The notes beneath the pieces were generated by a model. That model worked only from the letters and a program-made list of their open reading frames with translations, ran no database searches and was not told where the DNA came from. A stretch of DNA of 64,000 nucleotides from Blastocladiella emersonii ATCC 22665 (lineage: Eukaryota; Fungi; Blastocladiomycota), in assembly GCA_025594325.1 (NCBI GenBank), contig JANHCV010000008.1:1612001-1676000 (forward strand), in the 5' to 3' direction. Positions 1 through 29,916 of the stretch are shown here, piece by piece (the stretch's first letter is position 1; the number at the start of each line of letters is the position of its first letter). The translations under genes and the position numbers were made by a program.

Positions 1-881
1 CGAGCTGGCACGTTAAACTGTTCGTGTGAGAGACCTAAAAAGTCGCTTGCGAGTTTACATGGATGGACGATGAAACACTCTGCATTTGCGCCCTTGACAA
101 GTCGGAGTTCAGCAACGAAGCGAATGGCATTGAAACTGACCTCAAGTTTCAGATCGCCGTCGCTGTTGGGATTAAAGTACCCAGTCACGCTGGCCAGAGT
201 GGATGCAAGTGTTGCCTGCGTATAGAACCCGCGGGGAATCGTGTACTTTGACCGTAACCCAGTGACTTGCCCACTCTTGATTTGATCCAGCGATGTTCCA
301 AGCGGGAACACAGTCATATCCAGGAAGTCGTTTGTTGCGTCGACGCTATAGATGTTGTTCTCTATTGTAAAATCCAAGAGTCGGACGTGCGAGAACCTTG
401 AACCAGGTGGGAGCGGAATACGACCATCCGCCTGGACATCCGCGTTGGTGAAAGTGAAGACGTGCTCCTCAGTGGGATGTGACGCCTGGTGCTGTAGTTC
501 GAGTGCCTTTTGCCGAGCATCAACCGGTGCCGTGTAGACCGCACTTGATACTGTATCGACGGGAACGGCGTCAATGGAGAACGGCATGGTCGCAGTCGCT
601 TCCAGATCACGGCGAGTCACTGTGGGTACGCTCGGAAGTTCCTTGAGCATGCGTCGCTTAGCCTTTGCCTCAGCCGACACTGGGTTCACTGGTCGAAAGA
701 CTTTTTTTGTGCCATCCCTGGAGATACTCACAATCTTCTTGATCTTGAGGACGCGTTTCATGGGCCTTTGCGCAATGGGGATATCGTTCTCCTTGTTTCG
801 GATCCGGTCAGTGTCAGTCTCGGGCCGCGACCCAGTTGGTGCGCGGGACGTTGGACGCGTGCTTGGGCGTTGCCGATTCAT
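1..881 (-). CDS. Minor capsid (penton) protein, PLV/Polinton type, 3'-partial; missing from the supplied ORF track
   Basis: Manual translation from the ATG at 881 stays open to the window edge: MNRQRPSTR...FTIENNIYSVDATNDFLD...YTIPRGFYTQATLASTL. This resembles the 'N.Y.I...N' and 'IP.G.Y....L...L' penton motifs. Basic N-terminal extension. Confidence 0.75.
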   Translation of the reverse strand, partial: MNRQRPSTRPTSRAPTGSRPETDTDRIRNKENDIPIAQRPMKRVLKIKKIVSISRDGTKKVFRPVNPVSAEAKAKRRMLKELPSVPTVTRRDLEATATMPFSIDAVPVDTVSSAVYTAPVDARQKALELQHQASHPTEEHVFTFTNADVQADGRIPLPPGSRFSHVRLLDFTIENNIYSVDATNDFLDMTVFPLGTSLDQIKSGQVTGLRSKYTIPRGFYTQATLASTLASVTGYFNPNSDGDLKLEVSFNAIRFVAELRLVKGANAECFIVHPCKLASDFLGLSHEQFNVPA

Positions 882-899
882 TTACAGTACCCAAGGAAT

Positions 900-1661
900 T
901 TAATTCACGTACTTTTCGAACCGTTTGGTGAGCAGTCTCGCCTTGCTATTCTTGTAATTGACGTGCATGAACGAATAGTCCTCGGCAGTACAGTGATTAT
1001 AGATCTGCAACCACCGGTCCCAAGTCTTGCCACAATGATGCTCCTCGTAAAAGTTTTTCACTTCCTTTTGATTGCCCGTTGAGAACAACAGAAAGTTGGT
1101 TGTGTTGAGACGAAGCGGCTTGGCAAGCTGGAAGTAAGATTGTGTGACGTAGACCGTGGAAATCATGTAGTGTCGCCCGTTCATGACACAATCAATGAGG
1201 ACTTTGCTTTTAAGCACACCCGTTGCCGCGCAATCGTCGAGTACAAGGAGTACGGGCTGTCGATCGCGTTTGGGGATGGCTTTTTGCGACTCGATGAGTT
1301 CGTAGACCACGTTTTCAAAGGTCGCGGCATCCGTATGGACATCCGCCTCGGATGGAACGGTGGGGTCTTCAAGGTCATCGTCTGGGAACAGTCGCGCTTC
1401 GGCCTTGTCTTTGCGGCGGGGCTTTGAGAGGATTCCTGGCGCGAAGATGTGTTTCCACTTCTCGTCGCTTTCAAACGATGGACAGCACACGACAAGCCGG
1501 CTAAACTGGCCCTTGTAAAAGCGTGTGATCATGTTCAGTAGCGTGAGCGTCTTGCCACTTCCACGACATGCTACGATCGCACACGAAAAGCACACTTTGG
1601 GGATGAGCGAGTCCGGGCCCTTGGCGTCGCCCTTTTCTCGTAACGGTTTGATTTCGAACAT
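900..1661 (-). CDS. A32-like DNA packaging ATPase (FtsK-HerA superfamily)
   Basis: Walker A ACRGSGKT, Walker B LLVLDD, and the A32-type segment GRHYMISTVYVTQSYFQLAKPLRLN. Confidence 0.93.
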   Translation of the reverse strand: MFEIKPLREKGDAKGPDSLIPKVCFSCAIVACRGSGKTLTLLNMITRFYKGQFSRLVVCCPSFESDEKWKHIFAPGILSKPRRKDKAEARLFPDDDLEDPTVPSEADVHTDAATFENVVYELIESQKAIPKRDRQPVLLVLDDCAATGVLKSKVLIDCVMNGRHYMISTVYVTQSYFQLAKPLRLNTTNFLLFSTGNQKEVKNFYEEHHCGKTWDRWLQIYNHCTAEDYSFMHVNYKNSKARLLTKRFEKYVN

Positions 1662-1676
1662 CTTTACGGTATACCA

Positions 1677-1769
1677 TCAAAAGTATTTGCGTTTGAGCCA
1701 CAGAGCACACTGGACACACTCTACGGCGAGAACGTATCCGCCAAAATACATTAAAGCAGTTGAGAACAT
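1677..1769 (-). CDS. Possible 30-aa hydrophobic micro-protein (MFSTALMYFGGYVLAVECVQCALWLKRKYF)
   Basis: ATG-to-TGA ORF that fills the gap between two viral genes. Hydrophobic stretch followed by a basic tail. Below the ORF-track cutoff. Confidence 0.4.
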   Translation of the reverse strand: MFSTALMYFGGYVLAVECVQCALWLKRKYF

Positions 1770-1798
1770 GACTGATTTAATGTGTGATGAGAAAATAT

Positions 1799-2104
1799 TT
1801 AGGCGCCTTCTGAAAGCGCTCGGTCTATAGCGTGCCCTACGTGGGCAATACTGTCAAGAATCGGATCAACGCGGAGAATGGCTTCCTCAGCCAGGCCGCT
1901 TGCAAGGTTCACGCCAGCTGCAATGTCGCGAAGGACGGGAATCGGAAGACTCGAGATCATGCCGCTGTAGTACTTGGTATTATGTATAACGGGCGAGACT
2001 TTCTCGTGGAGAATGCGTTTCCCATAGTCGATACCAGTAACGAGCGCTTTGGCGGCAATCCCCGCGTATCCTTTCAAGTTATTCCAAGCGTTTGCAAACC
2101 ACAT
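1799..2104 (-). CDS. Small candidate virion protein with N-terminal amphipathic helix (adenovirus pVI-like, putative membrane-lytic)
   Basis: MWFANAWNNLKGYAGIAAKALVTGIDYGKRIL shows amphipathic periodicity. Located in the virion module. Function is inferred. Confidence 0.55.
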   Translation of the reverse strand: MWFANAWNNLKGYAGIAAKALVTGIDYGKRILHEKVSPVIHNTKYYSGMISSLPIPVLRDIAAGVNLASGLAEEAILRVDPILDSIAHVGHAIDRALSEGA

Positions 2105-2119
2105 TGTTTAACTATAGGC

Positions 2120-2650
2120 TCAGGAAAAAAGATGCGAAAAGTCTTGCACTGCAGATTTGGGCTGACGGGGATTCTGGAGTCGTTTTGGTTTGGCAGCGGG
2201 TTTGGGCACAGGTTTGGGCGGCGGGTCATCATACGAGCTCTCTGACTCGGATTCCGAGACATACACGACGCGTTGGCGCTGTTTCTTGGGCTTGGGCTTG
2301 TACACGACAATTTCTTCCTCCGATTCCGACTCGGACACTTGCACAGCCGCTTTCTTGGAAGCGATCCGAGTAGCGAGTTCCTTGAGCTTGGTCTTTTGTG
2401 CGGCAGCGAGGTCTTTCTTGCGTTGGGCCAGATTGGCGGCACGGACTTCGCGTGCTTTCGCCAGTGCATCCAGTCGCCGCTGCTTGATCACGTCCGGATC
2501 AGTTTCTTTAGGGAGTGCACTGCCGCCACGTTTCTGTTTCCACAGTTTCGCATTCTTGATTTCAGAAAGAACTTCCTCAACCGAGGCATCTGAGGTATCT
2601 GTCGCGGATGTTTCAAGGATGGGCTCCTCTACGGGCTGAGTGCGCGGCAT
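2120..2650 (-). CDS. Charged low-complexity viral protein (candidate core/DNA-binding)
   Basis: 176 aa with an RLDALAKAREVRAANL helix, K/R-rich and SESESE-rich tracts. Starts at GTAAATG. Confidence 0.65.
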   Translation of the reverse strand: MPRTQPVEEPILETSATDTSDASVEEVLSEIKNAKLWKQKRGGSALPKETDPDVIKQRRLDALAKAREVRAANLAQRKKDLAAAQKTKLKELATRIASKKAAVQVSESESEEEIVVYKPKPKKQRQRVVYVSESESESSYDDPPPKPVPKPAAKPKRLQNPRQPKSAVQDFSHLFS

Positions 2651-2675
2651 TTACAGTATCCTCAGAAAAAGATTT

Positions 2676-2927
2676 CTACGACGCAGTCTTCGTTTTCAGT
2701 TTCAAGAGCATTCGCTGTCTGATCTGAGAAATGTTTTCTTTGTGCGGGTCACTTGTGTGTTGGCGAACCAGGTCTTGCATCTTACGGAGACGCTTTGCCT
2801 GTCGTTTTCCAGAGATTTGGTTTTCTACCGGTTCCACGGGCCGTTCCTGAAGCGAAAAGGCAATGGACACGTCGTCGCTAATCGTATTCCGTGGGTCGTT
2901 GATCAGGACAAGCTCGGACAAATCCAT
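2676..2927 (-). CDS. Hypothetical viral protein (83 aa)
   Basis: Co-oriented with and tightly packed against its neighbours; preceded by GTAAAG. Confidence 0.6.
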   Translation of the reverse strand: MDLSELVLINDPRNTISDDVSIAFSLQERPVEPVENQISGKRQAKRLRKMQDLVRQHTSDPHKENISQIRQRMLLKLKTKTAS

Positions 2928-2953
2928 CTTTACTGAAGCCCGTCAAAAAGATT

Positions 2954-3733
2954 TCAAGTACTTGTGCGGCCGAAGGGCACTTTACAGACGTCCAAGAGCA
3001 CTCGGACAAAGAACTGGTACCCAGACATGTCCTTGACAATGGTCATGGTGATCCGGTTTTGCTCGTTTTTATCAAACTCGACAGAATGGGCTGCAGTATC
3101 GAGATGAAGGCGGTGGCGGTAGATATCGCGAAAGTACACTTGGCATCCCACAATGTGGTTCAGATCCGGAGTTGGGAGGATATTGGTGATGTCGAAAGTG
3201 TGCTGCGACTCGGACAGCGTCATGTCGTAATCGAGCAAAACGCGTTTGATGGGCAGGCTATGGGAACCAAAGTAATCGGCCTCCACGGTTCCGTCCATGC
3301 GAGCGTCGCCCTTGACGTAGAACGCGTTTTCGTCTGGCGGTGGGCCATTGTGCAGGATACTGAGGCCGTGATACGACAGATTCGTGACAACTTCAGGCGG
3401 ATCGTCGCTACGGCCAGGCGGAGCAACGTACTGGCAAACCTTTACGGTGCCGTTACCCATGTCTTCGGCCTCCATTGCGTACTGCGGACCACCTGGTCGG
3501 TACCGCCATGGCGACATTGCAAATCGCGTAGTTTCTCCTTCACCGCCTGGTCCTGTAATGCTAAACACGGCGCCGTCTTCCTTGGTATTTGAGTGCAGTC
3601 GCAGTACGGCGTCAGTTTCAATATCGACACTTCCATTGGCAAGTTGGATCGTGAGGTCTTGGTGGCGCTGGTCCATGACCTGGGACGAGAGCGTTCGGAC
3701 GCGGAGTGAGCCGTTTGCAGTTGTGGATGCCAT
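2954..3733 (-). CDS. Hypothetical viral protein (259 aa), beta-rich, possibly fibre- or capsid-associated
   Basis: Clean ORF starting at GTAAATG, divergent from the fibre gene. The FYVKGDARMDGTVEAD segment resembles fibre shaft repeats. Confidence 0.65.
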   Translation of the reverse strand: MASTTANGSLRVRTLSSQVMDQRHQDLTIQLANGSVDIETDAVLRLHSNTKEDGAVFSITGPGGEGETTRFAMSPWRYRPGGPQYAMEAEDMGNGTVKVCQYVAPPGRSDDPPEVVTNLSYHGLSILHNGPPPDENAFYVKGDARMDGTVEADYFGSHSLPIKRVLLDYDMTLSESQHTFDITNILPTPDLNHIVGCQVYFRDIYRHRLHLDTAAHSVEFDKNEQNRITMTIVKDMSGYQFFVRVLLDVCKVPFGRTST

Positions 3734-3782
3734 TTACTTGAACGCACGATTTTAAATTCAGCGGCGTGGGCAGTGATCGGCG

Positions 3783-3798
3783 ACATCCCCAGGGATGC
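3783..3798. promoter_or_regulatory. Dyad ACATCCC-CA-GGGATGC in the divergent intergenic region; recurs at 6901, 9190, 12454 and 12482
   Basis: Palindrome with a 2-bp spacer. The 16-mer at 3783 is the exact reverse complement of 12454-12469. Function unknown. Confidence 0.5.
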
Positions 3799-3848
3799 CC
3801 GTGTCAGCGTACGGTCATGTCGTGCATTTTTATCTCTCCAAAGTGTAA

Positions 3849-6494
3849 ATGGACTTGAACACGCGAAACATCTTTGGGTACGCACCTGGTACCGGTACTC
3901 CAACTGTGGTCGCCGATCCGGTGGCCATTGACAGCGTCTCAAACCTTGCAACAAAGGCGTACTGTAACGCCAACTCTGGAGTGGCTGCGGGGACCAACAT
4001 CGTTGTTACTGGCAAGACCGTTGCAGTGAGTGACCTACCTGGATTCTCCCAAGTCACGCTATCTGAGCCACCCACACTTCCAACGCATGCCGTGACCAAG
4101 GCCCACCTTGAATCAAAACTTTCAAACGTGATTGGCGCAGGTCCTGGTGTGAATGTCATTGGAAACGTCGTATCGGTAAAGGTGGACGACGCGACGCTTG
4201 GAGTTGGGGCACAGGGAATCTATGTCAAGTCCGGTCTTGCAGCTGGATCAGTGACGTCTGCGGCGATTCAAGATGGTTCGGTGACCACGGCAAAGCTGGT
4301 CGATGCATCTGTCACGCCTGAGAAACTCACAAGTGTGCCATGGACAAAAGTTACGGCTCCGCGGATCACAAACGCCATGCTGGCTGAACCCGTTGCCGAC
4401 GCAAACATTGCCAGCGTTTCAGCGACCAAGGTCGTGGGCCAATTTGCACAGAGTCAGCTCCCAAACACGATCGACGCGGGCCGAATCGGCGGTACACTTG
4501 CCGCGGCTAATCTCCCTTTGACTATTGACGCTGGCAAACTCACTGGATTGGTTCCGGTGTCGTGTCTTCCCGCAACGACATCGACAGCTGCATCGACCAT
4601 CACTGGACTCATCACCGACTCCCAAATCGCCGGAGTGTCCGCATCCAAGGTTTCGGGCGTACTTGCTGCTGCGAACATCCCCACGGTATTCTCAGGGATG
4701 ATTGCCTCCCTTGAAACGACCAAGTTGAACGGGCAGATCACAAATGCCCAAATCGGTGCCGTAGATGCTGCAAAGATTACGACTGGAACCATTGACTTGG
4801 CTCGACTCCCTGATGTTTCAAACAAAGTTGGTTCTCTGTCCGGCCTTGCACTTGTTGATGCATCTGTTTCGGATGCCAAACTTGTGAGTGTTTCTGGTGG
4901 AAAGCTCGTTGCGGGTTCAGTAGGTACATCAGCACTCGCTGACTTGGCTGTTTCGAACGCCAAACTTGCAACGGGAATCGACGGCGCCAAAGTCACGGCC
5001 GGATCTATTGGCAATGTCCAACTCGCAAGCGGTGCTGTCTCGGACATCAAGGTCGCGGACGTTTCTGCCGCAAAGCTGACAGGTACACTCGATGTTGCAC
5101 GCATTGCTGACGGTTCGATTGGCAATCTCAAACTCGCAACGGGAATTGATGGCGCCAAAGTCACGGCCGGATCTATTGGCAATGCCCAACTCGCAAGCGG
5201 TGCTGTCTCGGACATCAAGGTCGCGGACGTTTCGGCTTCCAAGCTCACTGGCACACTCGATGTTGCACGAATTGCGGACGGTTCGATTGGCAATCTCAAA
5301 CTTGCAATGGGTATTGATGGCGCCAAAGTCTCGGCCGGATCCATTGGAAATAGCCAGCTTGCAAGCGGTGCTGTCTCGGACATCAAAGTCGCGGACGTTT
5401 CCGCTACAAAGCTCACTGGAACTCTGGACGTGGCACGTATCGCGGACGGTTCTATCGGGAATCTCAAACTGGCCACAGGAATTGACGCTACGAAACTCGC
5501 AGGAACCATCGACATTGCCCGTCTTCCCGATATTTCCTCAAAAGTGACATCCGTGAGCGCATCCGCACTAACAGGCACAGTGCCTCAATCCGCACTTGGA
5601 CTTGGCGCGACGTTTGCGTTTACGAATACGACGGATAGCACATCGACTTCATCTGGTGCGATCACGATTAACGGCGGACTTGGAGTGAATAAACAACTGT
5701 CCGTGCCCAACATTCTGGTCCGAAACTTTACGAGCGCGAATATGGTCTTTGACAGTGCGGTAAACACGCTGACGTACGTCGACTTTAAACAAGCTGGCGT
5801 CATCAAGAACAATCTCGCATGTACTGCCGCAGGGAATCTCGAACTCGCATCCGCAACGACGGGCGGCGTATCCCTGGCAGCTGGCGGTGGGAACGTGGTC
5901 ATCGGATCAGCGACCCTTGGAACAGAAAAACTTCGAGTCAACGGCACTGGTCGGTTCACTGGCCAACTCACACTCGACCTTGCTCCAGTGGCGGGCACAG
6001 ATGCCGCGAATAAAGCGTACGTCGATAATCTCATGGCTACAAATCGGTGGGGACAGGTTCTCATCAACTCGGCGAGTTTGTCGTTTTTATCCGGACAATC
6101 CCAGGTCATCACGGGCGCAAACAGTCAAGGCGCGGCGATCGTAAACTCGACAAGTCCCGGGTTCCTGGGTCTTGGAGCAACCAACGGCTGTTTCACTGTC
6201 AGCGCAACGGGATGGTACGCACTACGCAGTCAGGGCTGGTACACGCAGGGAAGTACGGTCACGGAGCACATCGCGACTTACTCGCTGTATAATGCCACCG
6301 ACTCGACGGTAGCGGGTAAGGACTACATTGGACTGCTGGCACGAGCTCTCTGTAAGTTCGCGTCGGATCAATACATGGGAGGCAGTGCTACAGTGTACCT
6401 TGAAGCCGGAAAGCAGTACGGGTTCACGTGGTCTTCCACCGTTTCCATGACCCAATCCGTTCACGTCACTCTTGACCTCTTCTTTATGCGCTGA
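3849..6494 (+). CDS. Fibre/receptor-binding-like protein (881 aa) with internal repeats and a C1q/TNF-like C-terminal head
   Basis: ATKAYC, AVTKAHLE and DAANKAYVD fibre-type motifs; many I.A.K[VIL]TG repeats; C-terminal FTVSATGWY...VYLEAGKQY beta domain. Confidence 0.7.
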   Translation: MDLNTRNIFGYAPGTGTPTVVADPVAIDSVSNLATKAYCNANSGVAAGTNIVVTGKTVAVSDLPGFSQVTLSEPPTLPTHAVTKAHLESKLSNVIGAGPGVNVIGNVVSVKVDDATLGVGAQGIYVKSGLAAGSVTSAAIQDGSVTTAKLVDASVTPEKLTSVPWTKVTAPRITNAMLAEPVADANIASVSATKVVGQFAQSQLPNTIDAGRIGGTLAAANLPLTIDAGKLTGLVPVSCLPATTSTAASTITGLITDSQIAGVSASKVSGVLAAANIPTVFSGMIASLETTKLNGQITNAQIGAVDAAKITTGTIDLARLPDVSNKVGSLSGLALVDASVSDAKLVSVSGGKLVAGSVGTSALADLAVSNAKLATGIDGAKVTAGSIGNVQLASGAVSDIKVADVSAAKLTGTLDVARIADGSIGNLKLATGIDGAKVTAGSIGNAQLASGAVSDIKVADVSASKLTGTLDVARIADGSIGNLKLAMGIDGAKVSAGSIGNSQLASGAVSDIKVADVSATKLTGTLDVARIADGSIGNLKLATGIDATKLAGTIDIARLPDISSKVTSVSASALTGTVPQSALGLGATFAFTNTTDSTSTSSGAITINGGLGVNKQLSVPNILVRNFTSANMVFDSAVNTLTYVDFKQAGVIKNNLACTAAGNLELASATTGGVSLAAGGGNVVIGSATLGTEKLRVNGTGRFTGQLTLDLAPVAGTDAANKAYVDNLMATNRWGQVLINSASLSFLSGQSQVITGANSQGAAIVNSTSPGFLGLGATNGCFTVSATGWYALRSQGWYTQGSTVTEHIATYSLYNATDSTVAGKDYIGLLARALCKFASDQYMGGSATVYLEAGKQYGFTWSSTVSMTQSVHVTLDLFFMR
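4977..5480 (+). repeat. Three tandem 168-bp (56-aa) coding repeats in the fibre gene
   Basis: IDGAKVTAGSIGN.QLASGAVSDIKVADVSA.KLTGTLDVARIADGSIGNLKLA.G starts at 4977, 5145 and 5313. Confidence 0.95.
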
Positions 6495-6495
6495 T

Positions 6496-7607
6496 TCAGT
6501 GGCGCACCGTACCCCTAAATCGACCAGGTTCGCGTCGATCACGTTCCGGCGGCTTGCGTGGCTCGATTGGCTGCTTAGTGCGCGTCTGTGGTGCTGGTCG
6601 CTGTGGCGCAACGCGTCCCGGCGGCTCACGTGATACTGAAACGGGCTGGAGATCAGTTCGAGAGTAAAACCCGACGCGACCGGCGACTTTATAGCTCGGA
6701 TTACTCACCCCCGAACCCTTGCGGACTTTGGTGACTTGGTGCAATGTGTCGCTCCACACCGGCTTTCCCTTGGACTCTCACTGGGTCTTGTACGGAATGC
6801 GCACGCGAACGAGCTGGCCGACTTTCAGCAACGCGCTCAGTGGATCACCCTCTCTGGTTTGCCCCGAGCGGCACGGATGGCTTTGAGCTCTGTCTTGGCG
6901 ACATCCCTGGGGATGTTGTCGTAGGCGTTCGGCGCTTTACCCGTCCCACGACTCTTGGACTTGTTGATCACGTCCTCGATTACCTTGAGGTGTTTTGGCC
7001 AGTCGTTGTTGCCTTCAATCGACATCCACGGGATGAGCATTGACTTGATTGTACGATTCATTCGTTCTGCAACTCCCTGGCCTTGGGGCACTCCGGGTTT
7101 GCCTTTAATGTGCTTCACAGTGGTCCCGGCCACAATGGTTGCAAACTCTGTCCCGTTATCCGTCTGGATCGTAGCGGGATTCAAATTGTGTTCCTCTACG
7201 ACCTTGTCCCAGATTGCCCGCACGTTGGCCGCTTCGCGTTTCTTTACGGGTCGGAGATAGACTTTACGCGTGGCAAGGTCGACAGCGACGAGAATTGCAG
7301 TGTAACCGTTAAAGTGCTTTGCTTCGCCCATGATAATCGAGTCCATCTGGAAGTTGCGGCCGGGACTAACGGACGAGATCACACGAATGTCGCGGTGCTT
7401 GTACTTGGGCTGTTTATATTGCTGCCACACTGATTGCTCTCCAAGCCATTTTTCGAGTTGGGCTCGGTAGATGTGCTGCCCTGTACTTTCCGCGGTGATG
7501 ATATCAAATAATCGCCTGATGCCGACGCCAACGTGGCCCTTTTTATAGCACAGGTTGCTCAAATACTCTGATTGAGCATCCGTAAGTGGTTCTTCGTGCG
7601 GATACAT
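6496..7607 (-). pseudogene. Polinton-type rve (DDE) integrase with C-terminal frameshift and premature stop
   Basis: The core 6837-7607 has QMDS, QTDNGTEF and AERMNRTIK. The C-terminal domain LKVGQLVRVR...PVWSDTLHQVTKV...FYSRTDLQPV continues in another frame after a shift near 6850-6855, with an in-frame TGA at 6778-6780. It ends 1 bp from the stop of the fibre gene. Confidence 0.88.
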
Positions 7608-7631
7608 TATATTAACAAGGAGAAATATCCA

Positions 7632-8984
7632 TCAGTTCTTGCCGACCATGTACGTGTCGACGTGAACGCCCACGGAATGACCCATGGCATGGGCGCGAGC
7701 CTTGATCTCGTTGTACGCCTTCGTGTTCTCAGGCGCGCTGATCCGGCGCAGCTTCTGGACTCCAACGTCAAGTCCAACGAGCTTGCCACTGCGGCCAACG
7801 TCTTGGCACCACTTCTTGCACAGCGCCTCGGCGTCATCAATGCTGTCGGCAAACACGAAATCAAAGCCCTGGTCGCGGCGGTACTTGATAAACTTGGCGA
7901 GCATGTTAGCCTGGTCGTCGGCAACGCGGTGCTTGAAGTCGTATCCGCGGCCGGCCGTCTTGATCACAATGGGACCGTAAATGAGCTTCGTCTCAGGGTC
8001 GTAGTGCGGGAAGTGGTCCGTCTTATCCACAGTGAGGAATGCGAGGTCACTGCGAACCGTAGTCAGAGTCTGGAGGTAAAGCTGCAGCTGGTGGACCTTG
8101 CTGGCGAGGCTGACTTCCTTGTCCAGCGTCCAGTCAAACTTCTCGTTGATCGCCTTCAGAACCTCAGCCTGAGTGGGCAGCGTGCCGGCTTCCTCCTTGT
8201 TGCGGGCCTCGCGCTTCTGCTTACGAAGCTCCTGGGCGTGCTTCGAGTACTGATCAGCAAGCTCATTGTCGCCGTTCCAGTTGCAGTACACGCTGAGCCA
8301 CTTGGCCGTGTCCAACTGGAGCGCATCCGGCGGGTTGTTCTTTCCCTTTTTGTTGTCCCACTTGACCATGGCGGCCTTCACAGCATCCACGTTGTGCATC
8401 GAGACGCCTGAAGCCATGAACTTGGTGAGAATGCGGTTCGCCGTCGCTTTATCAGTATCGCTGCGCTTCCCGACTTCCTTGTTGGCCTTGATGATGTCCG
8501 CGTTCTTGAACTCCTCAATCGACTTGGCTGTGATCGTCTCGAACTTGAGCTTCTTTGCGGGGCGCTCCGGCACGGTGGTCTCAGACGCGTCGCTCATGAC
8601 CACGTCCGCGGACGAGTGATCAGCCGCGTGATCCGAGTCACGTGACGTGTCGTCACCGCCATTGCCGGGCACGGTCGACGCCTCTTGCTCCATCTCATTG
8701 TAGGGGCGCTTCAGCGCGCGGCGACAATGCGAGTCCAGAACCAGCTTGAAATCCCGAACGTGCAAAACACAGTCAAAAACTTGATCATTCACATTAGACA
8801 TGCCTATAAGCAGCGTATCAGACTGAGCCTCAATGACTTTGAAGCGTGGGGCGAGCTCAGCCACGTGGCTTGCGATCGCTTGCTGCTGAGCCTTGATGGC
8901 TTGGAGGCGGGGCTCAAGCGCGCCCATGAACTCCTTGGTGGCTTGAGCGAGGATGTCCTTGACCAGAAGCTCGAACGACGCCAT
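7632..8984 (-). CDS. Tyrosine recombinase, PLV/virophage-type, with coiled-coil and acidic N-terminal extension
   Basis: Catalytic-like residues in order: TVRSDL (R), VIKT (K), QKLRRI (xxLR), AMGHSVGVHVDTY (H...Y at the usual spacing). Confidence 0.8.
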   Translation of the reverse strand: MASFELLVKDILAQATKEFMGALEPRLQAIKAQQQAIASHVAELAPRFKVIEAQSDTLLIGMSNVNDQVFDCVLHVRDFKLVLDSHCRRALKRPYNEMEQEASTVPGNGGDDTSRDSDHAADHSSADVVMSDASETTVPERPAKKLKFETITAKSIEEFKNADIIKANKEVGKRSDTDKATANRILTKFMASGVSMHNVDAVKAAMVKWDNKKGKNNPPDALQLDTAKWLSVYCNWNGDNELADQYSKHAQELRKQKREARNKEEAGTLPTQAEVLKAINEKFDWTLDKEVSLASKVHQLQLYLQTLTTVRSDLAFLTVDKTDHFPHYDPETKLIYGPIVIKTAGRGYDFKHRVADDQANMLAKFIKYRRDQGFDFVFADSIDDAEALCKKWCQDVGRSGKLVGLDVGVQKLRRISAPENTKAYNEIKARAHAMGHSVGVHVDTYMVGKN

Positions 8985-9079
8985 TGTGCTTTACTACAGA
9001 GCAGGCAAAAAAGGTACGCGGGGATGTCCGCGTTTTATACGTTTGGCGTTATCGCTAAAAGTTTTCGCGCCTGTTGCTA

Positions 9080-9535
9080 ATGGACTCGCACTTGATGGGA
9101 TTCTTCCTGAGCCATGTCACTGACATCCCCAACACTGTATTCGATCCAGAACTCGTTCTGCAGCTTGACAGCGAAGCCATCGCAACGATATCCCCAGGGA
9201 TGGCGGATGCCGCGTTTGAGAAGGTCCGCGCACTCGCTGCCCGCGTGGCGATCGTCGAACTCGCTTTGAATCGCAAGCTTTCCAAGTGCCCGCTCACTTC
9301 CTGGGGCGAAAACACACTCCTCGAGCTCGTGGGCAAGTTCAAGGTCCGGAAGCTGGACGTGGACATTGCAGGAACTCTTGCCAAGTTTTCCATTCCAGAG
9401 TGCGAGGGGGAAAACATTCGCGCGGAATGGGAAGAAGTAAAGCTCGATGTGATGCTCAAGGCAATTGCAAAGGCATCTGTGCGCAAACTCGAAAAGAAAC
9501 AGAAGCCAGAAACGGCGGAAGATGACACAGAATAG
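9080..9535 (+). CDS. Hypothetical viral protein (about 151 aa)
   Basis: ATG at 9080, divergent from the recombinase. Helical, with a charged C-terminus. Confidence 0.55.
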   Translation: MDSHLMGFFLSHVTDIPNTVFDPELVLQLDSEAIATISPGMADAAFEKVRALAARVAIVELALNRKLSKCPLTSWGENTLLELVGKFKVRKLDVDIAGTLAKFSIPECEGENIRAEWEEVKLDVMLKAIAKASVRKLEKKQKPETAEDDTE

Positions 9536-9654
9536 ACGTTCCAGCGATCCAAAAGACATATCGATAGCTATTTCTGAAGAGTTATCGATAAACGCGCCAG
9601 ACGCATAAAAGCAGCCGGTTTTTCCTCTTGTGGGACAGTAAGAACATCCCCAAA

Positions 9655-12021
9655 ATGTCTTCTGCCGCCTCAAAGATTACCGAGACTGTCAAGGACCTTT
9701 CAAAGATTCTTGACCCGCTCTATGCTGTCCGCCTCATGGCACCAGTGAATCCCAAGGCCGTGGAAGCTCTACACAGCAAGGCGATCCAGTGTTCGTGTGC
9801 CGACCCAAAGCAACAGGCCAAGGAAACGAAAATCGTCAACTCAATCCGTCGCAAGATGAATAAGCGCGGTGAAATCGAGACCATCTACAAGTTCTCAGAC
9901 ACGACAAACTCTGGTCGACTTACTACCACGCCTACTACTCCTGGGCTACAAAAGATTTGCGGCGAAACGCGTGCGTTCCTGTTCGAGGGCGTGCTCCAAG
10001 ATATCGACATGCACAACTGTGCGCCAACCATCATCTACCAACTGGCTCGTCACTACGGCCTTGAGTACCCGCTCTTGACAGAGTACATTCAGAATCGAAG
10101 CCTGGTACTGGATCGACTGGGGATGAGTAAGACCGATTTCTTCGCTGGCGCATTCCACAAAAAGTGCCCGTCGGAACTCCCTGCGGATTACAAGATGTTC
10201 CATGCGTTCCTGTACAACGTGGTGGTGCCCAAGTTCCAAGAGATGCATCTGGACGTGTGGGCCATGTCGTCGCCAAAGCATCCCAATCGCCAGGGCTCAT
10301 TCCTCTCGTTCGTCTATCAGTGCGTCGAGTGCAAGGTTCTGCTCCACGCCAAAGACTTTTGCGCCTCGCGTGACATCAAGGTCGCGGTTCTCATGTACGA
10401 CGGCATGATGGTCCGTGCCTCAGATCAGATCAACGAGCAGTTTATGGCCGACCTCGGTGCGTACACGCTCGAAAAGACGGGTTTTGATATCAAGTGGGCC
10501 GAGAAAACCATTGTCGCGCCCTGTGCCATTCCAGAGCCCGAGGAAGAGGAGGAGGAGAAGACGCCCGAGGAGGAAATCTCCGAGTTCATCATCCACGAGT
10601 TTGAGACCAAGGGCTACGCCAAAGACGGCGACACGATCTACGCTGCATCCGAGGCCAATCCATTCTACTACGAACCGCTGATGACAGTGGCAGAGTACAC
10701 GTCGTACCTGCTCGACGAAGTGTTCATTCAGTACTTTAACAAGAACGCGCACAAGTACGCTCGCGATGTTGCTGCTCGTCTCGGCCACGGTTCCAAGCAC
10801 ATCCGCCAGTACAAACCGAATCGCAGCCTGATCGCATTCAAAAACGGCGTTCTGTTCACGGGCACGAAGCGCAATCGCCAGTGGGGGCTTTACAGTTTCG
10901 AGGACATTGAGAACGACCGCGAGCGATTCGAACGCGAAGTTTGCGGCGGATGCCCTGTGGCATGGTCGTACATTGACAACGAATTCGACTTTAGCATTCC
11001 GCGCTCGGAATACGGCAACCTCGACCTCGGCCCGTACCGCGACGTTCTCGATCTACAGATGGGCGAGGACCCCGAGGCAATCAAACAGTACATCATGCTT
11101 GCGTTCGGCCGTTCATGCTTCCCTGTAGGCGAGCTCGACAACTGGCGTCTTTGCCTCATTACGTGGGGCGAGTCGGGTACAGGCAAGACTCTGACAATGG
11201 ATCTGCTCAAGGAAATCCACGGAATCCAGCGCATGAGTATCATGGAAAGCGGGGCGAAGATGACGCCGTACACAATCGGTTACGTGCGCGAAAAGCCATT
11301 CTGGATTCTCCAGGATGTGGGCAAGGACGTGATTGCCAAACTTGGTCAGTCGCTGTTCAAGAACGCATCTGAGGGCGGCGGTCTCATGGGCGGCATGAAG
11401 CATCGCGACGAAGACACCAAGCAGTTTACCACCCATATCATGATGACGCTCAACTACCTCGTACAGTTCCAGGAAGAAAGTGGCGAAACCTCTACTCGAA
11501 TGGTCATTGCCCATTTCAAGAACAAGCCGGCTCGCAAGGACGACAAGATTTTCAAGCGAATCGTGGACAAGTACCTGATCAACATTATCGTCACGGGTCT
11601 TTCGGCGTATCATTCGACTCTGGATCACCTTGACGCGAACCCAGAGCAGACCTTCCGCGATGATGTGCTGAGTCCATTCTTCAAGCAATCCAACGAACAG
11701 GCGCGTGTGCTTAATGACGTTTATGGCAAGGCGATCCTGGCACAGGACTCGGGGTTCGTGGTCACTCAAGACCCGGCCGACTACGTGGGACTGGACGAGA
11801 TTCAGAACGCGGGCAATGTCTCGATTTCCGCCAAGTGGAACGACGAGCTCATGGCAGCGATTGGACTGAAGGCCGATCGCATCAAGGTGTGTCGGAACTG
11901 TGGAAAGAAACACGTCAAGGGGTGCTGTGCAGACTACAGTCGTACGGCCCGCTCTTCAAAGCGAGTGGTGACTGGAATCCGCCGCGCCCGTTTCTCAGAT
12001 GGCACAGAGGACGACGACTGA
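9655..12021 (+). CDS. PolA-like primase-polymerase (TVpol) fused to D5-like superfamily 3 helicase, with a C-terminal Cys/His cluster
   Basis: SGRL...LQ...R...DIDMHNCAP (motif A-like) and LMYDGMMV (motif C-like). Helicase motifs IAFKNGVL, WGESGTGKT, ILQD and TLNY. Terminal CRNCGKKHVKGCC. Confidence 0.88.
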   Translation: MSSAASKITETVKDLSKILDPLYAVRLMAPVNPKAVEALHSKAIQCSCADPKQQAKETKIVNSIRRKMNKRGEIETIYKFSDTTNSGRLTTTPTTPGLQKICGETRAFLFEGVLQDIDMHNCAPTIIYQLARHYGLEYPLLTEYIQNRSLVLDRLGMSKTDFFAGAFHKKCPSELPADYKMFHAFLYNVVVPKFQEMHLDVWAMSSPKHPNRQGSFLSFVYQCVECKVLLHAKDFCASRDIKVAVLMYDGMMVRASDQINEQFMADLGAYTLEKTGFDIKWAEKTIVAPCAIPEPEEEEEEKTPEEEISEFIIHEFETKGYAKDGDTIYAASEANPFYYEPLMTVAEYTSYLLDEVFIQYFNKNAHKYARDVAARLGHGSKHIRQYKPNRSLIAFKNGVLFTGTKRNRQWGLYSFEDIENDRERFEREVCGGCPVAWSYIDNEFDFSIPRSEYGNLDLGPYRDVLDLQMGEDPEAIKQYIMLAFGRSCFPVGELDNWRLCLITWGESGTGKTLTMDLLKEIHGIQRMSIMESGAKMTPYTIGYVREKPFWILQDVGKDVIAKLGQSLFKNASEGGGLMGGMKHRDEDTKQFTTHIMMTLNYLVQFQEESGETSTRMVIAHFKNKPARKDDKIFKRIVDKYLINIIVTGLSAYHSTLDHLDANPEQTFRDDVLSPFFKQSNEQARVLNDVYGKAILAQDSGFVVTQDPADYVGLDEIQNAGNVSISAKWNDELMAAIGLKADRIKVCRNCGKKHVKGCCADYSRTARSSKRVVTGIRRARFSDGTEDDD

Positions 12022-12534
12022 ACCCACTACCAAATGGCCGCCTACTCTATCAACCTATTTTGTGTCTCTGTGTCTCTGTGTCTCAGCTATAATATTCTTT
12101 TCTATAAATTGAAGAAAAAAATAGTAACATACTAAGTATGTATGTTGTTTTCAGTTCAAAATACGATTTACAAGTGAAATCGCAGGGACACTGGGTCACT
12201 GGGACAAGACTCACCAACCCTCATCGATACTCTCACTGACTGACTCACCATTTCCTCACCGCGCCGACGGATTCATAGACCGTTTGCCAATATCGCCCAT
12301 GCCCGTCATGGATTTCAATTCATCGAATAATCGCAAAGTCATTTCGAGACGCGTCGCGGATCAGATGACCGTCACGTGGGCCGCGAGACACTTGGAGACG
12401 CGTCGACTTATCACGTGAGGACCCTCCGCCACTTCGTGGCTGCGGGCGCGCGCGCATCCCTGGGGATGTTTCTGACGGGCGTCCCCAGGGATAGACCTAA
12501 CCACATCTACCTCTATAGCCATTTAATCCTATCC

Positions 12535-12560
12535 TGAGGTATCCTTATAAGGATACCTCA
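12535..12560. repeat. Perfect 26-bp palindrome TGAGGTATCCTTATAAGGATACCTCA
   Basis: Read directly from the sequence; centred on TTATAA. Confidence 0.95.
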
Positions 12561-12587
12561 TGAGCAGAGGTTTGTCTCGCTGGACGC

Positions 12588-12803
12588 TGTTGCGTGTCGT
12601 TCATGTGGCCACGACCGCGGTGATCAATCATCTGATCTCGCGTGAGCCGCCCGCAATCCCTCGCTCCCGCGCCGCCGCACCCCGCTGCGGCGCGCCCTGC
12701 TTTGTTATCCATTCTCCCCTCTCCCCGTCTTGGGTTCGGGGCCGAAGGCAGGAATAGACATCCCTGACTACTCGTCTCCCGCCTCCTCCTGTCGGCATCA
12801 ACA
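12588..12803 (+). mobile_element. Solo LTR (family A, 216 bp)
   Basis: TGTTG...CAACA termini flanked by the 5-bp TSD GACGC on both sides. Homologous to 44364-44584. Confidence 0.85.
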
Positions 12804-13393
12804 GACGCATTACCGTTGAATCCCTGGGTTCGTCCTGCCGCGCACCACGTCAAGTGTAGACTCTCAGTATGTAGAAAGCGGCTCACGGTTACTGAAGTTG
12901 GCGTTTGAGACTGAGACCATCCTCTGGGGATGGGTGTGACAGAGTGTTTAGCTCTTACGACGTTGAATCTCCGACCTATATCTCAAAAGGCATTTAAATT
13001 CTAATTTATTGCCATGCTGCCGTGTTACATGGTCGCAAAGGAGAGGGGTGACGAGCGCGGCGAAACGACGCTGTTCACGTGCTTGCGTCCCTCACGTGGG
13101 CGTCACATGATAGTTTGTCGCGTCTTGCACACCATATGTCCGCCCAGCTGATTGAGCAGCTGAAACATAAAAGTCAATAAAAAAAAGATATGCTAAATTA
13201 GCGTTGAGCCGACGGCGCTATCGTTACACTCGCAACCCAGAACTCGAGCCGGGAAACAATTGACTGATTGAGAGTCGTCAGCTCAAATGACATTGACATG
13301 ATTTCCCTACCCGTCTTGTTCAGTTTTTCTCACGCTTGTTCCAATACGAATATTTATACACCCATTTTCACTTCCGATGAGACAGTCAGCGAC

Positions 13394-14125
13394 TAAACCC
13401 ATGAGTAAACCCTGACTAGACTCGGACCAAACCCGCATCAGACTCGGATCAGACCCTGACTAAACTTCAATTGAACTGCGACTAAACCTCGACTGAACCT
13501 TGACTAAACCTCAACAAAATCTTGATTAAACCGTGACTGAACCTCAACTAAACCTCGACTGAACTCAGACTGAACTCGGAGTAAACCGCGACCAAACCTT
13601 GACTGAACTGTGACCAAACCAAGACCAAACCTGAAGTAAACCGCGACCAGAACTCGACTAAACCTCGACTAAACCAACACCAAACCTGAAGTAAACCTCA
13701 AGCAAAACGCGAGCAGAACGCGAGCAGAACGCGACTGAACCGCGACTAAACCGCGACTGAACCGCGACTAAACCGCGACTAAACCGCGACTAAACCGCGA
13801 CTAAACCGCGACTAAACCGCGACTAAACCGCGACTGAACCTCGACTGAACCGCGACTAAACCGCGACTAAACCGCGACTAAACCGCGACTAAACCGCGAC
13901 TGAACCTCGACTGAACCTCGACTAAACCTCGACTGAACCTCGACTGAACCTCGACTAAACCTCGACTAAACCGTGACTAAACCTCGACTAAACCTCGACT
14001 AAACCGTGACTGAACCTCGACTAAACCTCGACTAAACCGTGACTGAACCGCGACTGAACAGCGACTGAACTCGGAGTAAACCGCGACTGAACGCGACTGA
14101 ACAGCGACTGAACCGCGACTGAACC
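13394..14125 (+). repeat. Left subterminal array of 11-bp units (ACCGCGACTAA / ACCTCGACTGA variants)
   Basis: Dozens of tandem units, degenerate near the TIR and homogeneous at about 13740-14040. Confidence 0.95.
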
Positions 14126-20440: not shown

Positions 20441-20949
20441 CTGGTCACGTTCTGGTCTGGTTTTGGTCCAAGTCTGCTTTCAGTCTGCTTTCAGTCCACT
20501 CAGGTCATATTCAGGTTTGCTCCGAGTTGTCTCGGCGCTGGCTTCATTCAATTTCAGTCTGGTCTGAGTCTAGTTTGCGTTTAGTCCGAGTCTAGTTTGC
20601 GTTTGGTCTGCGTTTAGTCTGGTTTTGGTTTCAGTTTAGTCTGCGTTTGGTCCAGGTCTGGTCAGCTTTTGCTCGAGTTTGATTTTAGTTTAGTTTAGTT
20701 CCAGTTCAGTTTGAGTTTACTTTGGGTTCAGACTGAGTCTACTTTGGGGTTGATGTGGGCGTTTCAGGGTCTGCTCATAGTCTGACTCAAGTCGAATAGA
20801 ATTCTGTTTCTGGTTTGCTCGAGGTTTACTCTGAGTTCAGTCATGGTTGAGTTTAGATTTACTCTAGGTTTACTCTAGGTTTACTCTAGGTTTACTCGTG
20901 GTTCAGTCATGGTTCAGTTGAGTTTCAGTCACGGTTTAGTCTGAGTTTA
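20440..20949 (-). repeat. Inner part of the right subterminal 11-bp array (reverse complement of the left array)
   Basis: TTTAGTCTGAG / GGTTCAGTC-type units. Continues at 24189-24411 beyond the Harbinger insertion. Confidence 0.85.
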
Positions 20950-21158: not shown

Positions 21159-22476
21159 ATGGGCAAGGGATACAACCGCAAGCTGCGCGGCCTCATGCTC
21201 ACGGCCGCCCTCGCTCTCCTGCGACGTCTCGCTGCGCGCAACGAGCGCCGCTCGTGGGAGCCTATCCGCACGTCCACGCTTTCTGGCGAGTCGTGGGTTC
21301 AAGAGCTGCTGACGTGCAACAGCGAAACGCGTTTTTCGGAAATCGCCCGTATGCCCCGCGAGACCTTCAAGGCCATCTGCCGCCTGTTCCGCGACCGTGG
21401 CCTTCTCGCCGACGGCCGCGAGCTGTCCGTCGAGGCGCGCTTCATGGTTTTTCTTGTCATGGCCGGCGAGGGCAGCACCAACCGCAACCTCAGGGAGCGG
21501 TTCCAAATCTCTGGCGAGACCGCGTCCAGGGTTCTGAAGCAAGTGCTCGACGCTCTGTACCGCCTGATGCCCGAGTTCATTGTCCAGCCGTCCGATTCTA
21601 CGCCCGTGCATGAGCGCATCGCCCACGATCCGAAATACGCTCCGTTCCAGAACGCGGTCGGCGCGCTTGACGGAACGCACATCCCGTTTGTTGTGCCCAC
21701 TAAGCTTCACGACTCGTTCCGAAACCGCAAGGGGACCATATCCTCAAATGTCCTCGCTGCCTGCGACTTTGACTTGAACTTCACCTACGTTCTCGCAGGG
21801 TGGGAGGGCAAGGCGCACGACTCGCGCGTGCTCTCGGACGCCTTCGCCCGTGGGTTCAAAATCCCCGCCGGCCGCTTCTACCTCGCCGACGGCGGCTACG
21901 CAAACCGCACGTCCATCATCGTGCCCTTCAGCGGTACCCGCTATCATCTTCGCGAGTTTGCGCGCGGCAAGGATGGGTACGTTCTCACTGCCATGACCAT
22001 CACGTTGGCGCCATCTCATCTGCTTCACCAACGTACGTAGAGTTAAGAACCGCGAAGAGCTTTTCAATCTGCGCCACGCGTCGCTCCGCAACTCTGTTGA
22101 GCGTATCTTTGGCGTGCTCAAGAAGCGGTTCCGCGTCCTCTCGATTGGCGCGGCCTACCCAATCAAGACTCAAGTCAAGCTTGTGTACGCGCTCTGCACG
22201 CTGCACAACATGATCAACAAGTGGAACCAAGGCGGCGACGCCTTCTTTCGCGACGCCGAGACGGAGCTCCGGCGCGCGCGGGACGCGGCGCGTGAGGCGC
22301 CAGTGCGTGGGCGCGAGCCCCTGGACGACGAGAACGAGGAGGACGACGAGGCCGCTGTCCTCGAGGCCTCGCTGGACGGAGCTCGTCAGCGCGGTATCTC
22401 GCTTCGGAACCGCGTCGCAAATGTTCTTTGGACCGAGTACAGGCGTGTCATGGCCGCTCGTGGGACCCGTCTTTGA
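21159..22476 (+). CDS. Harbinger DDE transposase (HARBI1-like), intron 21977-22040, 417 aa spliced
   Basis: GALDGTHI, GWEGKAHDSRV, YLADGGY; splicing restores FNLRHASLRNSVERIFGVLKKRF. Confidence 0.95.
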
Positions 22477-22788
22477 AGGCGCGAAATAATTGTTGTACCC
22501 GCATGCATGCTGTAATATACTGATTTGTCAAGTACTATAACGTTAGATAAGCGATTCCAGATGATTTGACGCGTCGCTGAGGTCAGAACGCATCGGTGGA
22601 GACGCGTCGATCAATCACGTGACGTGCGAGACACTTTGAGAACCACGCGTTTCTCAACGAGTCGCGTCATTTTCGAGCGAAGGGTAACAATTGAAGATAC
22701 GATGGATACAAAGCCAGATGTATTGGACACAAATGGGCGAGAACAAGGCCAGGAAGCAACGCGAGGGAGGGGGACATGTGCGAGAGAG

Positions 22789-23918
22789 CTACTGAATGAA
22801 AAACTCGAGGACGCGCTTGCGCTTCGGTCCGGACACGGCCATGACGCGAAGCGCTTGATCCTCGGTCAGGCGGGTGGCGACGTCGATCTGGTACTCTTCA
22901 TTGTCGTTGTACGCGTCCTGGACCCATTCAAGTGCGGCGGTCAGAACGGGCTTGGAGTCGGCGGTCGAGACGCTCTGGAACACCTCCTTGATGCCCATGA
23001 GGAATTCCGAGTCCGAGAGGCGACGCGAGCTGCTGTCCGAAGTGCGGCTGCGCTTGCTGGCGGGGGCCGCGTCGTCTTGACCATCGACACCTTCCACGTC
23101 ACCAGACTCCTTGCCGTCCTGCTTGAGGTGCGAGTACTCGCCGGTGGCGGTCGAGCTGCCCCACGGCATGTTGGCCTTCTTGTAGTACGGGAAGGGCTTG
23201 CAGCCCGCAGTCAGCTCCTCCTTGAGCTCTGCCTACAATTGAAGCAGGCCAGGCGCTGTTAGCTCGCCGCGAGTTGACGCGTAACGATATTGAACAAACG
23301 TACCGAGAGATCGTTCCAGAACTCCTCTGGCACGTCGACCGTGCACTCACCCTCATTCCAGGTGCAGCCGTTGCCCGAGTACGACAGAAGCCGTTTTACG
23401 GCGCGAAAACAAGTGCGAAGCTGGAGCCGAACGCTGACGTTGTTAGCGCTACGGTTGACGCGTGTCCGCAAGACAAAGCGTACGTATGTCACGCGGTTCT
23501 TGAACTGCTCCGCCGTAAACTGCATGTTGAACTCGTCCGACAGGGCCTGGGCAATCGACACACGGTGCTGGGCCTTGAGCGTGTTGCTGTCGCCGAGCAC
23601 GCCGTCGTCGGCGAGGTTGCAGAAGTGGTCGAGGAGGAAGTTGGTCGACGCGGAGCAGAAGGTGGCCTTGCCGCCGCTGGCCTTGCCGCTGCTGGCCTTG
23701 CTGCCACTGGCCTTGCGCTTGCTTGGCTTGGCGATGGTCACGGGCGGCAGCGGGTTGGTCGGCGTGACAGCAGCGTTGCCGTCGCTCCCAGCAGCGTTGT
23801 CATCTGCATCCTCGTCGCTATCGGCGGGCGGCGGCGGGATTTCGGGCACGTTCTTGACGATCTCCTCGATGGACATGGCCGTACGGCCAGCGCGCTTTTT
23901 GCTTGACGGGGGAGCCAT
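22789..23918 (-). CDS. Harbinger Myb/SANT-like DNA-binding protein, two short introns
   Basis: Spliced QFKNRVTY-LRTCFRAVKRLLSYSGNGCTWNE...FWNDLS-AELKEEL...KPFPYY. GTACG donors. Confidence 0.88.
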
Positions 23919-24188: not shown

Positions 24189-24411
24189 TTAGTCTGAGTT
24201 TAGTCTGAGTTTAGTCTGAGTTTAGTCTGAGTTTAGTCTGAGTTTAGTCGAGGTTTAGTCGAGGTTCAGTCACGGTTTGGTCTTGGTTTGTCCATGGTTC
24301 TGTCGCGGTTTAGTCGAGGTTCAGTCGCGGTTCAGTCGAGGTTTAGTTGCAGTTCAGTCGCGGTTCAGTCGCAGTTTAGTCGCGTTTTAGTCGCGGTTTA
24401 GTCGCGTTCTG
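24189..24411 (-). repeat. Outer part of the right subterminal 11-bp array
   Basis: TTTAGTCTGAG about five times, then TTTAGTCGAGG / TTCAGTCGCGG units up to the TIR. Confidence 0.95.
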
Positions 24412-29600: not shown

Positions 29601-29916
29601 CCAACGTCGGTCTGGCGTTCTGCTCGCGCGCTCATCGTGACAACGCTTCCTACCTAAGCGTCGACGTTCCCGTCGTGCAAACGAAAGCGCTTCCTTTGCT
29701 GCGTGCGCGTCTCGCGTGCGGCTTTGGACGGGCTCGCATGGTGTCTAGCTCAAGTCGCGAGCGGCGGGCGACGACTTGAAGTCCACCGATTCACAAACTG
29801 TATCGCTCTCTCGCAATGCGCATAAATTCGAGACGTGCGCCCAGCTCGATTGATGCGAGCATACAAAATGGCTGGGAGTTACTACTTGGCAGGCACGAAC
29901 GAGGAGGAGGAGCCTG

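Follow-up and report, generated by a model that had tools for sequence, protein, structure and literature searches.

A 14-bp dyad is dispersed along a viral element integrated in the genome of the fungus Blastocladiella emersonii ATCC 22665, and its sequence features indicate that it is real, under selection and likely a docking site for a protein. The DNA in question, called the window below, is a stretch of 64,000 nucleotides (contig JANHCV010000008.1, positions 1,612,001 to 1,676,000), of which bases 1 to ~12600 are an integrated Polinton-like virus (PLV)/virophage-like element that extends past the left window edge. The core of the dyad, counted on either strand (TCCCCAGGGA/TCCCTGGGGA), occurs five times in positions 1-13100 and not once in the 50.9 kb of 13101-64000. 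Tentatively, the dyad is taken here as an operator at which a dimeric DNA-binding regulator, encoded by the virus itself, would act; the best candidate for this regulator is a 151-aa protein of the element.

Sites and enrichment of the dyad

The sites and the half-sites discussed below are the following.

3784..3797, plus strand: full site CATCCCCAGGGATG, centre 3790.5, in a divergent promoter
6902..6915, minus strand: full site in the rve integrase gene, encoding N-I-P-R-D-V with a rare AGG codon
9189..9202, plus strand: site changed in a single letter (T at position 1) in the gene of the 151-aa protein, ~110 nt past its start
12455..12468, minus strand: full site, first of a terminal head-to-head pair
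12480..12493, plus strand: site carrying two transitions, second member of the terminal pair
713..726, minus strand: variant TATCTCCAGGGATG, located in the penton-like gene and including an AGG codon; position weight matrix (PWM) score 18.2
4687..4700, plus strand: possible weak site in the fibre gene, beside half-site 4676; score 13.9
12918..12932, minus strand: variant with a one-base insertion, a putative viral member
9019: half-site CATCCCCG, in the divergent gap between the recombinase and 151-aa genes
9124 and 9645: half-sites CATCCCCA, the 9645 copy immediately 5′ of the helicase start codon

All eight motif strings quoted in a sequence-only reading of this DNA were recovered where it had placed them, including the copy at 12454, which is indeed the exact reverse complement of the 16-mer at 3783. 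That reading had proposed a comparison with a Markov background, and within the 64-kb window the enrichment is borne out: against the five cores observed, 0.015, 0.017, and 0.079 are expected under order-2, order-3, and order-4 models, respectively, and TCCCCAGGGA ranks first among all 10-mers of the element under the order-2 and order-3 models. When up to two mismatches to CATCCCNNGGGATG are allowed, 11 matches are found, compared with 2.18 +/- 1.40 in 100 shuffled sequences, none of which reaches 11. In a look-elsewhere control, a dispersed dyad family of at least four copies appeared in none of 150 simulated elements, and one of three copies in 3/150.

The conserved CA/TG spacer also holds for all five cores: every TCCC-NN-GGGA spacer is either CA or TG, for which chance is ~2e-4 with free spacers and 0.03 when the spacers are restricted to pyrimidine-purine steps. 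An origin of the spacer by CpG decay was considered and rejected, CpG not being depleted (observed/expected 1.15). When the six firm sites are oriented, they differ by transitions only, and the flanks more than 7 bases from the centre are not conserved. Furthermore, half-sites (CATCCC plus CA/TG), which were missed in the sequence-only reading, number 17 in 1-13100 and zero in the host part (~2 expected); one of the 17, at 12759, is not counted as viral because it lies inside a long terminal repeat (LTR)-like insertion.

The family has graded margins. The variant at 713 scores above all host matches (18.2 against 15.2 for the best one, at 16176), while the weak site at 4687 falls within the host background. 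The 12918 variant is only putatively viral because it lies beyond a 26-bp palindrome and a 216-bp solo-LTR-like insertion, and a partial match (9/14) is found at 12820. Where a single look-alike in host DNA had been noted (16177), four with up to two mismatches are present (16176, 28042, 32614, and 49078). The regular spacing of about 3 kb was found to depend on the choice of sites, reaching P=0.0035 for 713/3784/6902/9189/12455 only; it weakens to P=0.027 without 713 and is lost with 12480 kept (P=0.33) or with all seven sites (P=0.27).

Placement in the divergent promoter and in coding sequence

The centre of the 3784 site (3790.5) practically coincides with the midpoint (3791) of the divergent start codons at 3733 and 3849, a placement with a chance of ~0.02. 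The site is located upstream of a T-tract...TAA element of both divergent genes. This promoter-like pattern lies in the 45 nt upstream of open reading frames (ORFs) (e.g., 882-926, 2651-2695, 3804-3848), and, in the form T-tract, 8-16 nt, (G)TAA, ATG, it precedes 9/11 ORFs but only 3/340 other ATGs, the pattern having been defined after the sequences were viewed. We take it to resemble the late TAAATG promoters of poxvirus type, and it may indicate that a helper giant virus carries out the transcription. A bacterial promoter scan was uninformative.

The copies inside genes bear most directly on whether the DNA letters themselves are maintained. When codons were resampled with the proteins fixed and the usage of the element kept, the two exact coding cores stood against a mean of 0.026 (0/3000 resamplings reached two), and three sites including the 713 variant stood against 0.064. 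The sites also take up rare codons. AGG is used only six times among the 178 Arg codons of the element, and two of the six are inside sites (P=0.001); in the 9189..9202 site, I-S-P-G-M is spelled with the rare codons ATA and GGG, and one of the five ATA codons of the element is inside a site (P=0.07). For the half-site word ATCCCCA, five stand-alone copies are found on the sense strand, compared with 1.2 expected (P=0.002), and all five stand-alone Ile-Pro pairs able to spell ATCCCCA do so, while ATC CCC is used in none of the seven others (P=0.001). The CA form of the dyad lies on the sense strand in all three firm coding sites (P=0.125), or in 4/4 together with the weak one (P=0.06). Among rve homologs IPRD is not kept, and the closest one lacks that stretch in its predicted product.

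The suggestion that selection acts on the DNA itself is thus strengthened by the rare codons, by identical letters without compensatory changes and by the exact promoter centring; judged from sequence, these point to the DNA letters, rather than the protein or an RNA fold, as the thing selected.

The element, its end and its relatives

The main genes of the element and the features of its right end are as follows; the element also has small ORFs.

1..881, minus strand: penton-like ORF, open at the window edge, labelled from its position beside the ATPase and the context given in the sequence-only reading
900..1661, minus strand: A32-type packaging ATPase (Pfam Pox_A32, E=3.7e-09)
3849..6494, plus strand: fibre-like protein with 168-bp repeats
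6837..7607, minus strand: rve integrase, 256 aa against 380-415 aa in relatives
7632..8984, minus strand: tyrosine-recombinase-like protein of Preplasmiviricota type (Atlas score 0.97-0.98; one cluster with 16% Phage_integrase)
9080..9535, plus strand: 151-aa protein, candidate reader of the dyad, with one credible homolog, in Allomyces javanicus (28-30% identity)
9655..12021, plus strand: primase/SF3-helicase-type replication protein (PHROGs primase matches; homolog labelled SF3 helicase)
12535..12560: perfect 26-bp palindrome
12588..12803: 216-bp TGTTG...CAACA insertion with a 5-bp GACGC duplication, solo-LTR-like and of high copy

Two features expected of an endogenous PLV or virophage are present: an A32-type packaging ATPase, and an integrase and replication module of Preplasmiviricota type (rve, recombinase-like and primase-helicase) in multiple copies in a eukaryote. 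The double jelly-roll major capsid protein is what tells PLVs from virophages, and the element continues past the left window edge. The replication protein has N-terminal motifs that we take to be PolA-like. The family search gave no match for the penton-like ORF, and neither did Pfam and PHROGs for the tyrosine-recombinase-like protein. P0019-P0021 and P0026-P0028 were put aside as unrelated on inspection.

The nearest relatives of the element proteins carry the NCBI names Blastocladiella emersonii and Allomyces, as befits a blastocladialean host, and recombinase homologs are found on five different large contigs. Contig depth over the element, a rough guide only, is ~5-6x that of a segment found in this copy alone. 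In the sister copies (contigs from four runs of one sample), 8 differences are found among 4478 letters in 534-5011 and 16 among 2005 in 5361-7367, these being differences among the 40 of 375 rows listed, which did not reach 9189 and the terminal sites. At this divergence of 0.2-0.8%, sites 713, 3784, and 6902 are unchanged, but only ~0.03-0.11 differences are expected per site, so the copies are too similar for the comparison to say anything of site conservation. The rve gene of this copy has indels and clustered substitutions near its 3′ end (6739-6851) relative to the majority of sister copies, and because it is also shorter than its relatives, the integrase is probably broken. In 8560-8891 and 10562-11976, sister copies carry a different recombinase N-terminal part and helicase domain (~49-50% identity in P0007), which on the sequences is module exchange between the copies. 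The rve integrase and the tyrosine recombinase are adjacent in this element (6837-8984); in Halocafeteria, as far as the available text of that report goes, the two occur together in virophages and not in PLVs (bioRxiv 10.64898/2026.07.28.741278).

Relatives outside these fungi were sought in several ways. Protein-seeded scans of viral contigs (helicase, recombinase, helicase alignment, ATPase) and a metagenome contig scan with the helicase alignment found no relatives. The rve alignment picked up 38 distant viral loci, the two best at 30% identity; these two lack both the core and any dispersed dyad family, and the other ten window proteins had no match in any of the 38. A paired-site pattern was found at 2 viral loci and at 94 metagenome loci, and of the latter, 80 with flanks were compared by tblastn/blastn, of which none was related. 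The exact 14-mer is present at at least 120 viral loci, and among the 46 records searched, drawn from 48 of these loci plus the two rve loci, 41 have one site, two have two, one of 80 kb has three and the two rve loci have none; thus the density seen here is approached by none of the 46 (maximum 3 in 80 kb).

At the right end, the sites 12455 and 12480 are arranged head-to-head 42 nt from the 26-bp palindrome, and the pair can form a stem of 14 bp that carries a loop of 9 nt. This stretch folds at z=-4.96 (0/200 shuffles). The palindrome probably forms, or lies close to, a hairpin tip of the element: in Halocafeteria, according to the available part of that source (bioRxiv 10.64898/2026.07.28.741278), such palindromes are found at the ends of non-pPolB PLVs and virophages, and loose contig ends lie behind 12560 in one run (X4). 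Because other contigs join 12582 to 12804, as empty sites of the solo-LTR-like insertion, the DNA farther out is evidently multi-copy as well, and the end is therefore placed between 12560 and ~13265. As to terminal inverted repeats and a target-site duplication, depth approximately doubles at 12151-12600, and the opposite end of the element lies outside the window. The sites show no significant mirror symmetry about the palindrome (53/300 shuffles).

The terminal region also clusters GACGCGTC (12348, 12397) and TCACGTG (12372, 12411), words that resemble fungal MCB and E-box sites; GACGCGTC is enriched in host DNA (16 against 3.5-7). Clusters of GACGCGTC/ACGCGT with TCACGTG(A) are found at 12340-12420, 6598-6634, 8576-8645, and 13075-13098, the one at 6598-6634 having matches elsewhere in the genome. 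A 23-bp inverted repeat (83%) at 2052-2074/9009-9031, near the starts of a 101-aa ORF and of the recombinase, holds the half-site variant ATCCCCGCGTA. Beside the element, 11-bp satellite arrays of the AACCGCGACTA type occupy 13407-14125 and are found again at 20471-20949 and 24198-24406, around a transposase-like gene pair (21159-23918) that recurs inverted at 38380-41139. In host DNA, a 103-bp tandem unit (29915-30147, 35191-35245) contains nested perfect palindromes, 30 and 24 bp long.

A proposed viral operator and competing readings

A dimeric DNA-binding protein as the reader of the dyad is suggested by fixed letters without covariation together with dyad symmetry, promoter centring and codon cost. 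Among the roles put forward in the sequence-only reading, the operator of a dimeric protein fits best with the fixed letters, the rare codons of the coding sites and the exact promoter centring. A regulator encoded by the element is favoured because the host DNA of the window lacks the word and because sites crowd the 151-aa gene, whose neighbourhood (9019..9652) holds one full site and three half-sites; host DNA free even of half-sites would suit a virus-specific reader. In the proposed scheme, each subunit would read one ATCCC half. From 3784, 57 bp upstream of each start, a dimer would control the two structural transcription units; the sites and half-sites in 9019-9652 would feed back on the recombinase/151-aa/helicase block, and those within genes would either be roadblocks or act as a sink. 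Through the terminal pair, the same protein may be tied to the end structure, for origin function or excision. Repression in the integrated state is the direction we would favour.

Several observations weigh against this viral operator. The 151-aa protein has no match in a DNA-binding family search, and its predicted model (pLDDT 38.6) is too low for use, as is that of a 450-aa protein (pLDDT 41.5); indeed, neither a DNA-binding family match nor a usable model was obtained for any of the regulator candidates. Comparison of the 151-aa protein with solved structures gave no match, and its Atlas leads are all <0.9. The Allomyces homolog has IWQGA where the window has ISPGM, and the site is absent there, as the homolog cannot encode the dyad at the matching position (one homolog, 28-30% identity); since it has IWQGA instead, the ISPGM residues appear dispensable. 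At 10118, the antisense half-site coincides with residues L-G-M that Allomyces homologs retain, and it may be protein-driven. Among all sense 7-mers ATCCCCA ranks no higher than fifth and does not stand out once multiple testing is allowed for, and the sense-strand polarity is partly favoured by codon structure. Dispersed dyad families of at least three copies, mostly of low complexity, are found in 15/38 unrelated real viral loci. Finally, the host sample is 51 kb, small and rich in transposons, and its deficit of half-sites (0 against ~2) is not significant.

Two known systems show what such an operator may look like. The stoperators of cluster A mycobacteriophages (L5, Bxb1) are likewise short words along a temperate virus, with some copies in promoters and most elsewhere; they are read by a single regulator and oriented with transcription, to be compared with the orientation of 3/3 or 4/4 coding sites of this dyad (PMC6550527, in its available part). 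Here, too, the word occurs in promoters and within genes above chance. Stoperators are, however, asymmetric 13-mers, up to ~30 per genome of a bacterial phage, with a known helix-turn-helix repressor, according to the portion of that article at hand (PMC6550527), whereas 5-7 near-palindromic sites are found here, in a eukaryotic virus, and the reader is only a candidate. The palindromes of baculovirus homologous regions (hr) are likewise dispersed and imperfect, in a eukaryotic double-stranded DNA virus, and combine roles in transcription and replication, as might by analogy be proposed here; as far as the text available goes, they lie in AT-rich regions as arrays, with 3-8 longer units in each (PMC4535591), whereas here mostly single 14-bp sites are found, three inside coding sequence. 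Tandem arrays at each locus are lacking, the 12455/12480 pair being the only pair. The dyad may thus work like stoperators and hr palindromes, yet it belongs to neither class because a known repressor and arrays, respectively, are lacking.

Rather unlikely, although with evidence of its own, is that the word is read by a transcription factor of the host or of a helper giant virus, which would couple viral activation or silencing to the state of the host. The core matches the consensus of the animal COE/EBF (Collier/Olf-1/EBF) dimer, ATTCCCNNGGGAAT / CCCnnGGGA; the COE core, TCCCNNGGGA, is matched by the five exact cores here, and a CCC-to-CTC change like that of the 713 and 16176 variants is tolerated and occurs in a natural COE site, AGACTCaaGGGAAT (PMC2394523, PMC4512700, available portions). 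On the other hand, COE is reported as metazoan-only, with genes absent from fungi (PMC2394523, of 2008, in the part available), while the host here is a fungus; no report of COE in chytrids was found in the literature, and the flanks are CA...TG here but AT...AT in the COE site. The exact core is lacking in 51 kb of host DNA, where the best match, at 16176, scores 15.2. The GACGCGTC and TCACGTG words beside the terminal pair, presumably MCB-/E-box-like, and the enrichment of GACGCGTC in host DNA would also fit a host factor. Regarding a helper virus, giant viruses infect these fungi, with no mention of promoters or motifs in the available text (PMC13533422), and PLVs use promoter words of their helper viruses, as stated in the accessible part of that source (bioRxiv 10.1101/2022.07.28.501842).

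Less probable again is that the sites are signals for replication or end processing, iteron- or hr-like, in which an initiator dimer on the terminal pair would load the SF3 helicase beside the hairpin tip and the internal copies would be auxiliary origins or enhancers. The head-to-head pair 42 nt from the palindrome and the strong fold of this stretch agree with it; terminal palindromes are proposed replication primers in non-pPolB PLVs and virophages (bioRxiv 10.64898/2026.07.28.741278), and hr palindromes are origins and enhancers (PMC4535591), in the available parts of both. Four of the six firm sites are nevertheless single and internal, and a lone hr unit performed poorly (same portion of PMC4535591); the promoter centring is not predicted, nor are the sites significantly symmetrical around the palindrome. 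In the available text, Halocafeteria virophages and PLVs likewise combine an end palindrome with a non-pPolB replication gene and an rve integrase, but no dispersed internal dyad is described for them, and their PLVs lack the pairing of rve with tyrosine recombinase that the element here has (bioRxiv 10.64898/2026.07.28.741278). An origin role of the terminal pair is compatible with a viral as well as a host or helper regulator.

It is improbable that the dyad is the crossover or binding site of the tyrosine recombinase or the rve integrase, used to invert the fibre gene or in excision. The identical asymmetric core at all sites is, we presume, what an overlap region requires, a recombinase-like gene is present, and the inverted sites 3784 and 6902 flank the fibre gene. 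Crossover sites of tyrosine recombinases have conserved inverted arms of ~11-13 bp around a 6-8 bp spacer, but here such arms outside the core are absent, conservation ending 7 bases from the centre. Moreover, none of the seven joints listed from the four runs of one sample is at a site, although contigs drop rare variants; one contig is collinear across 534-5011 and another across 5361-7367, and genes would be disrupted by a recombination event at 6902 or 9189. The recombinase-binding signal once suggested thus finds no support as a crossover site.

Slightly weaker still is a signal for packaging, condensation or nicking every 3 kb, also among the earlier suggestions. It is built on the regularity of five chosen sites (coefficient of variation 0.15, P=0.0035), which varies with the sites kept: 12480 and 12918 must be dropped and the 713 variant added (otherwise P=0.27-0.33), and the left part of the element lies outside the window. 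There is very little room for an RNA hairpin acting in processing, polyadenylation or as a translational operator. The sense-strand polarity of coding sites and a possible 10-bp stem at 6902 are in its favour; the letters are nonetheless fixed, without compensatory changes and with inconsistent flanking pairs, four single-site/promoter stretches fold no better than shuffles (z -1.45 to 0.17, DNA parameters), with respect to both genes the 3784 site lies upstream of the promoter element, and an Rfam search gave no match. An origin by chance, from codon bias or as a neutral by-product of mutation is hardly credible; one might cite for it that several half-sites encode Ile-Pro or that CA/TG is the decay product of a methylated CG centre, but it is rejected by the Markov, shuffle, codon-resampling and look-elsewhere nulls. 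Known words of similar appearance (CreA SYGGRG, yeast PDS, papillomavirus E2, Dcm CCWGG, FokI GGATG) presumably do not explain the dyad either, as none covers all 14 conserved positions.

No dispersed dyad operator in a PLV, and no PLV in Blastocladiella, was found in the literature covered, which left supplements (with possible motif tables) and most subscription papers outside its scope. Of the silencing and waking of integrated PLVs, the accounts so far, in the available parts of the sources, describe only giant-virus-like promoter words and terminal palindromes. It is conceivable, if rather doubtful, that the dyad belongs to a lysogeny switch in the manner of phages, with a small viral dimer of a new family on a dispersed operator oriented with transcription, or with a COE/EBF-like factor, the first outside animals; such a dimer would shut the structural promoter, block genes from within and cap the hairpin end. 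A 14-bp site selected even inside genes would in any case offer a handle on the control of these viruses, be it viral and lysogeny-like, by the host, or by a helper virus.

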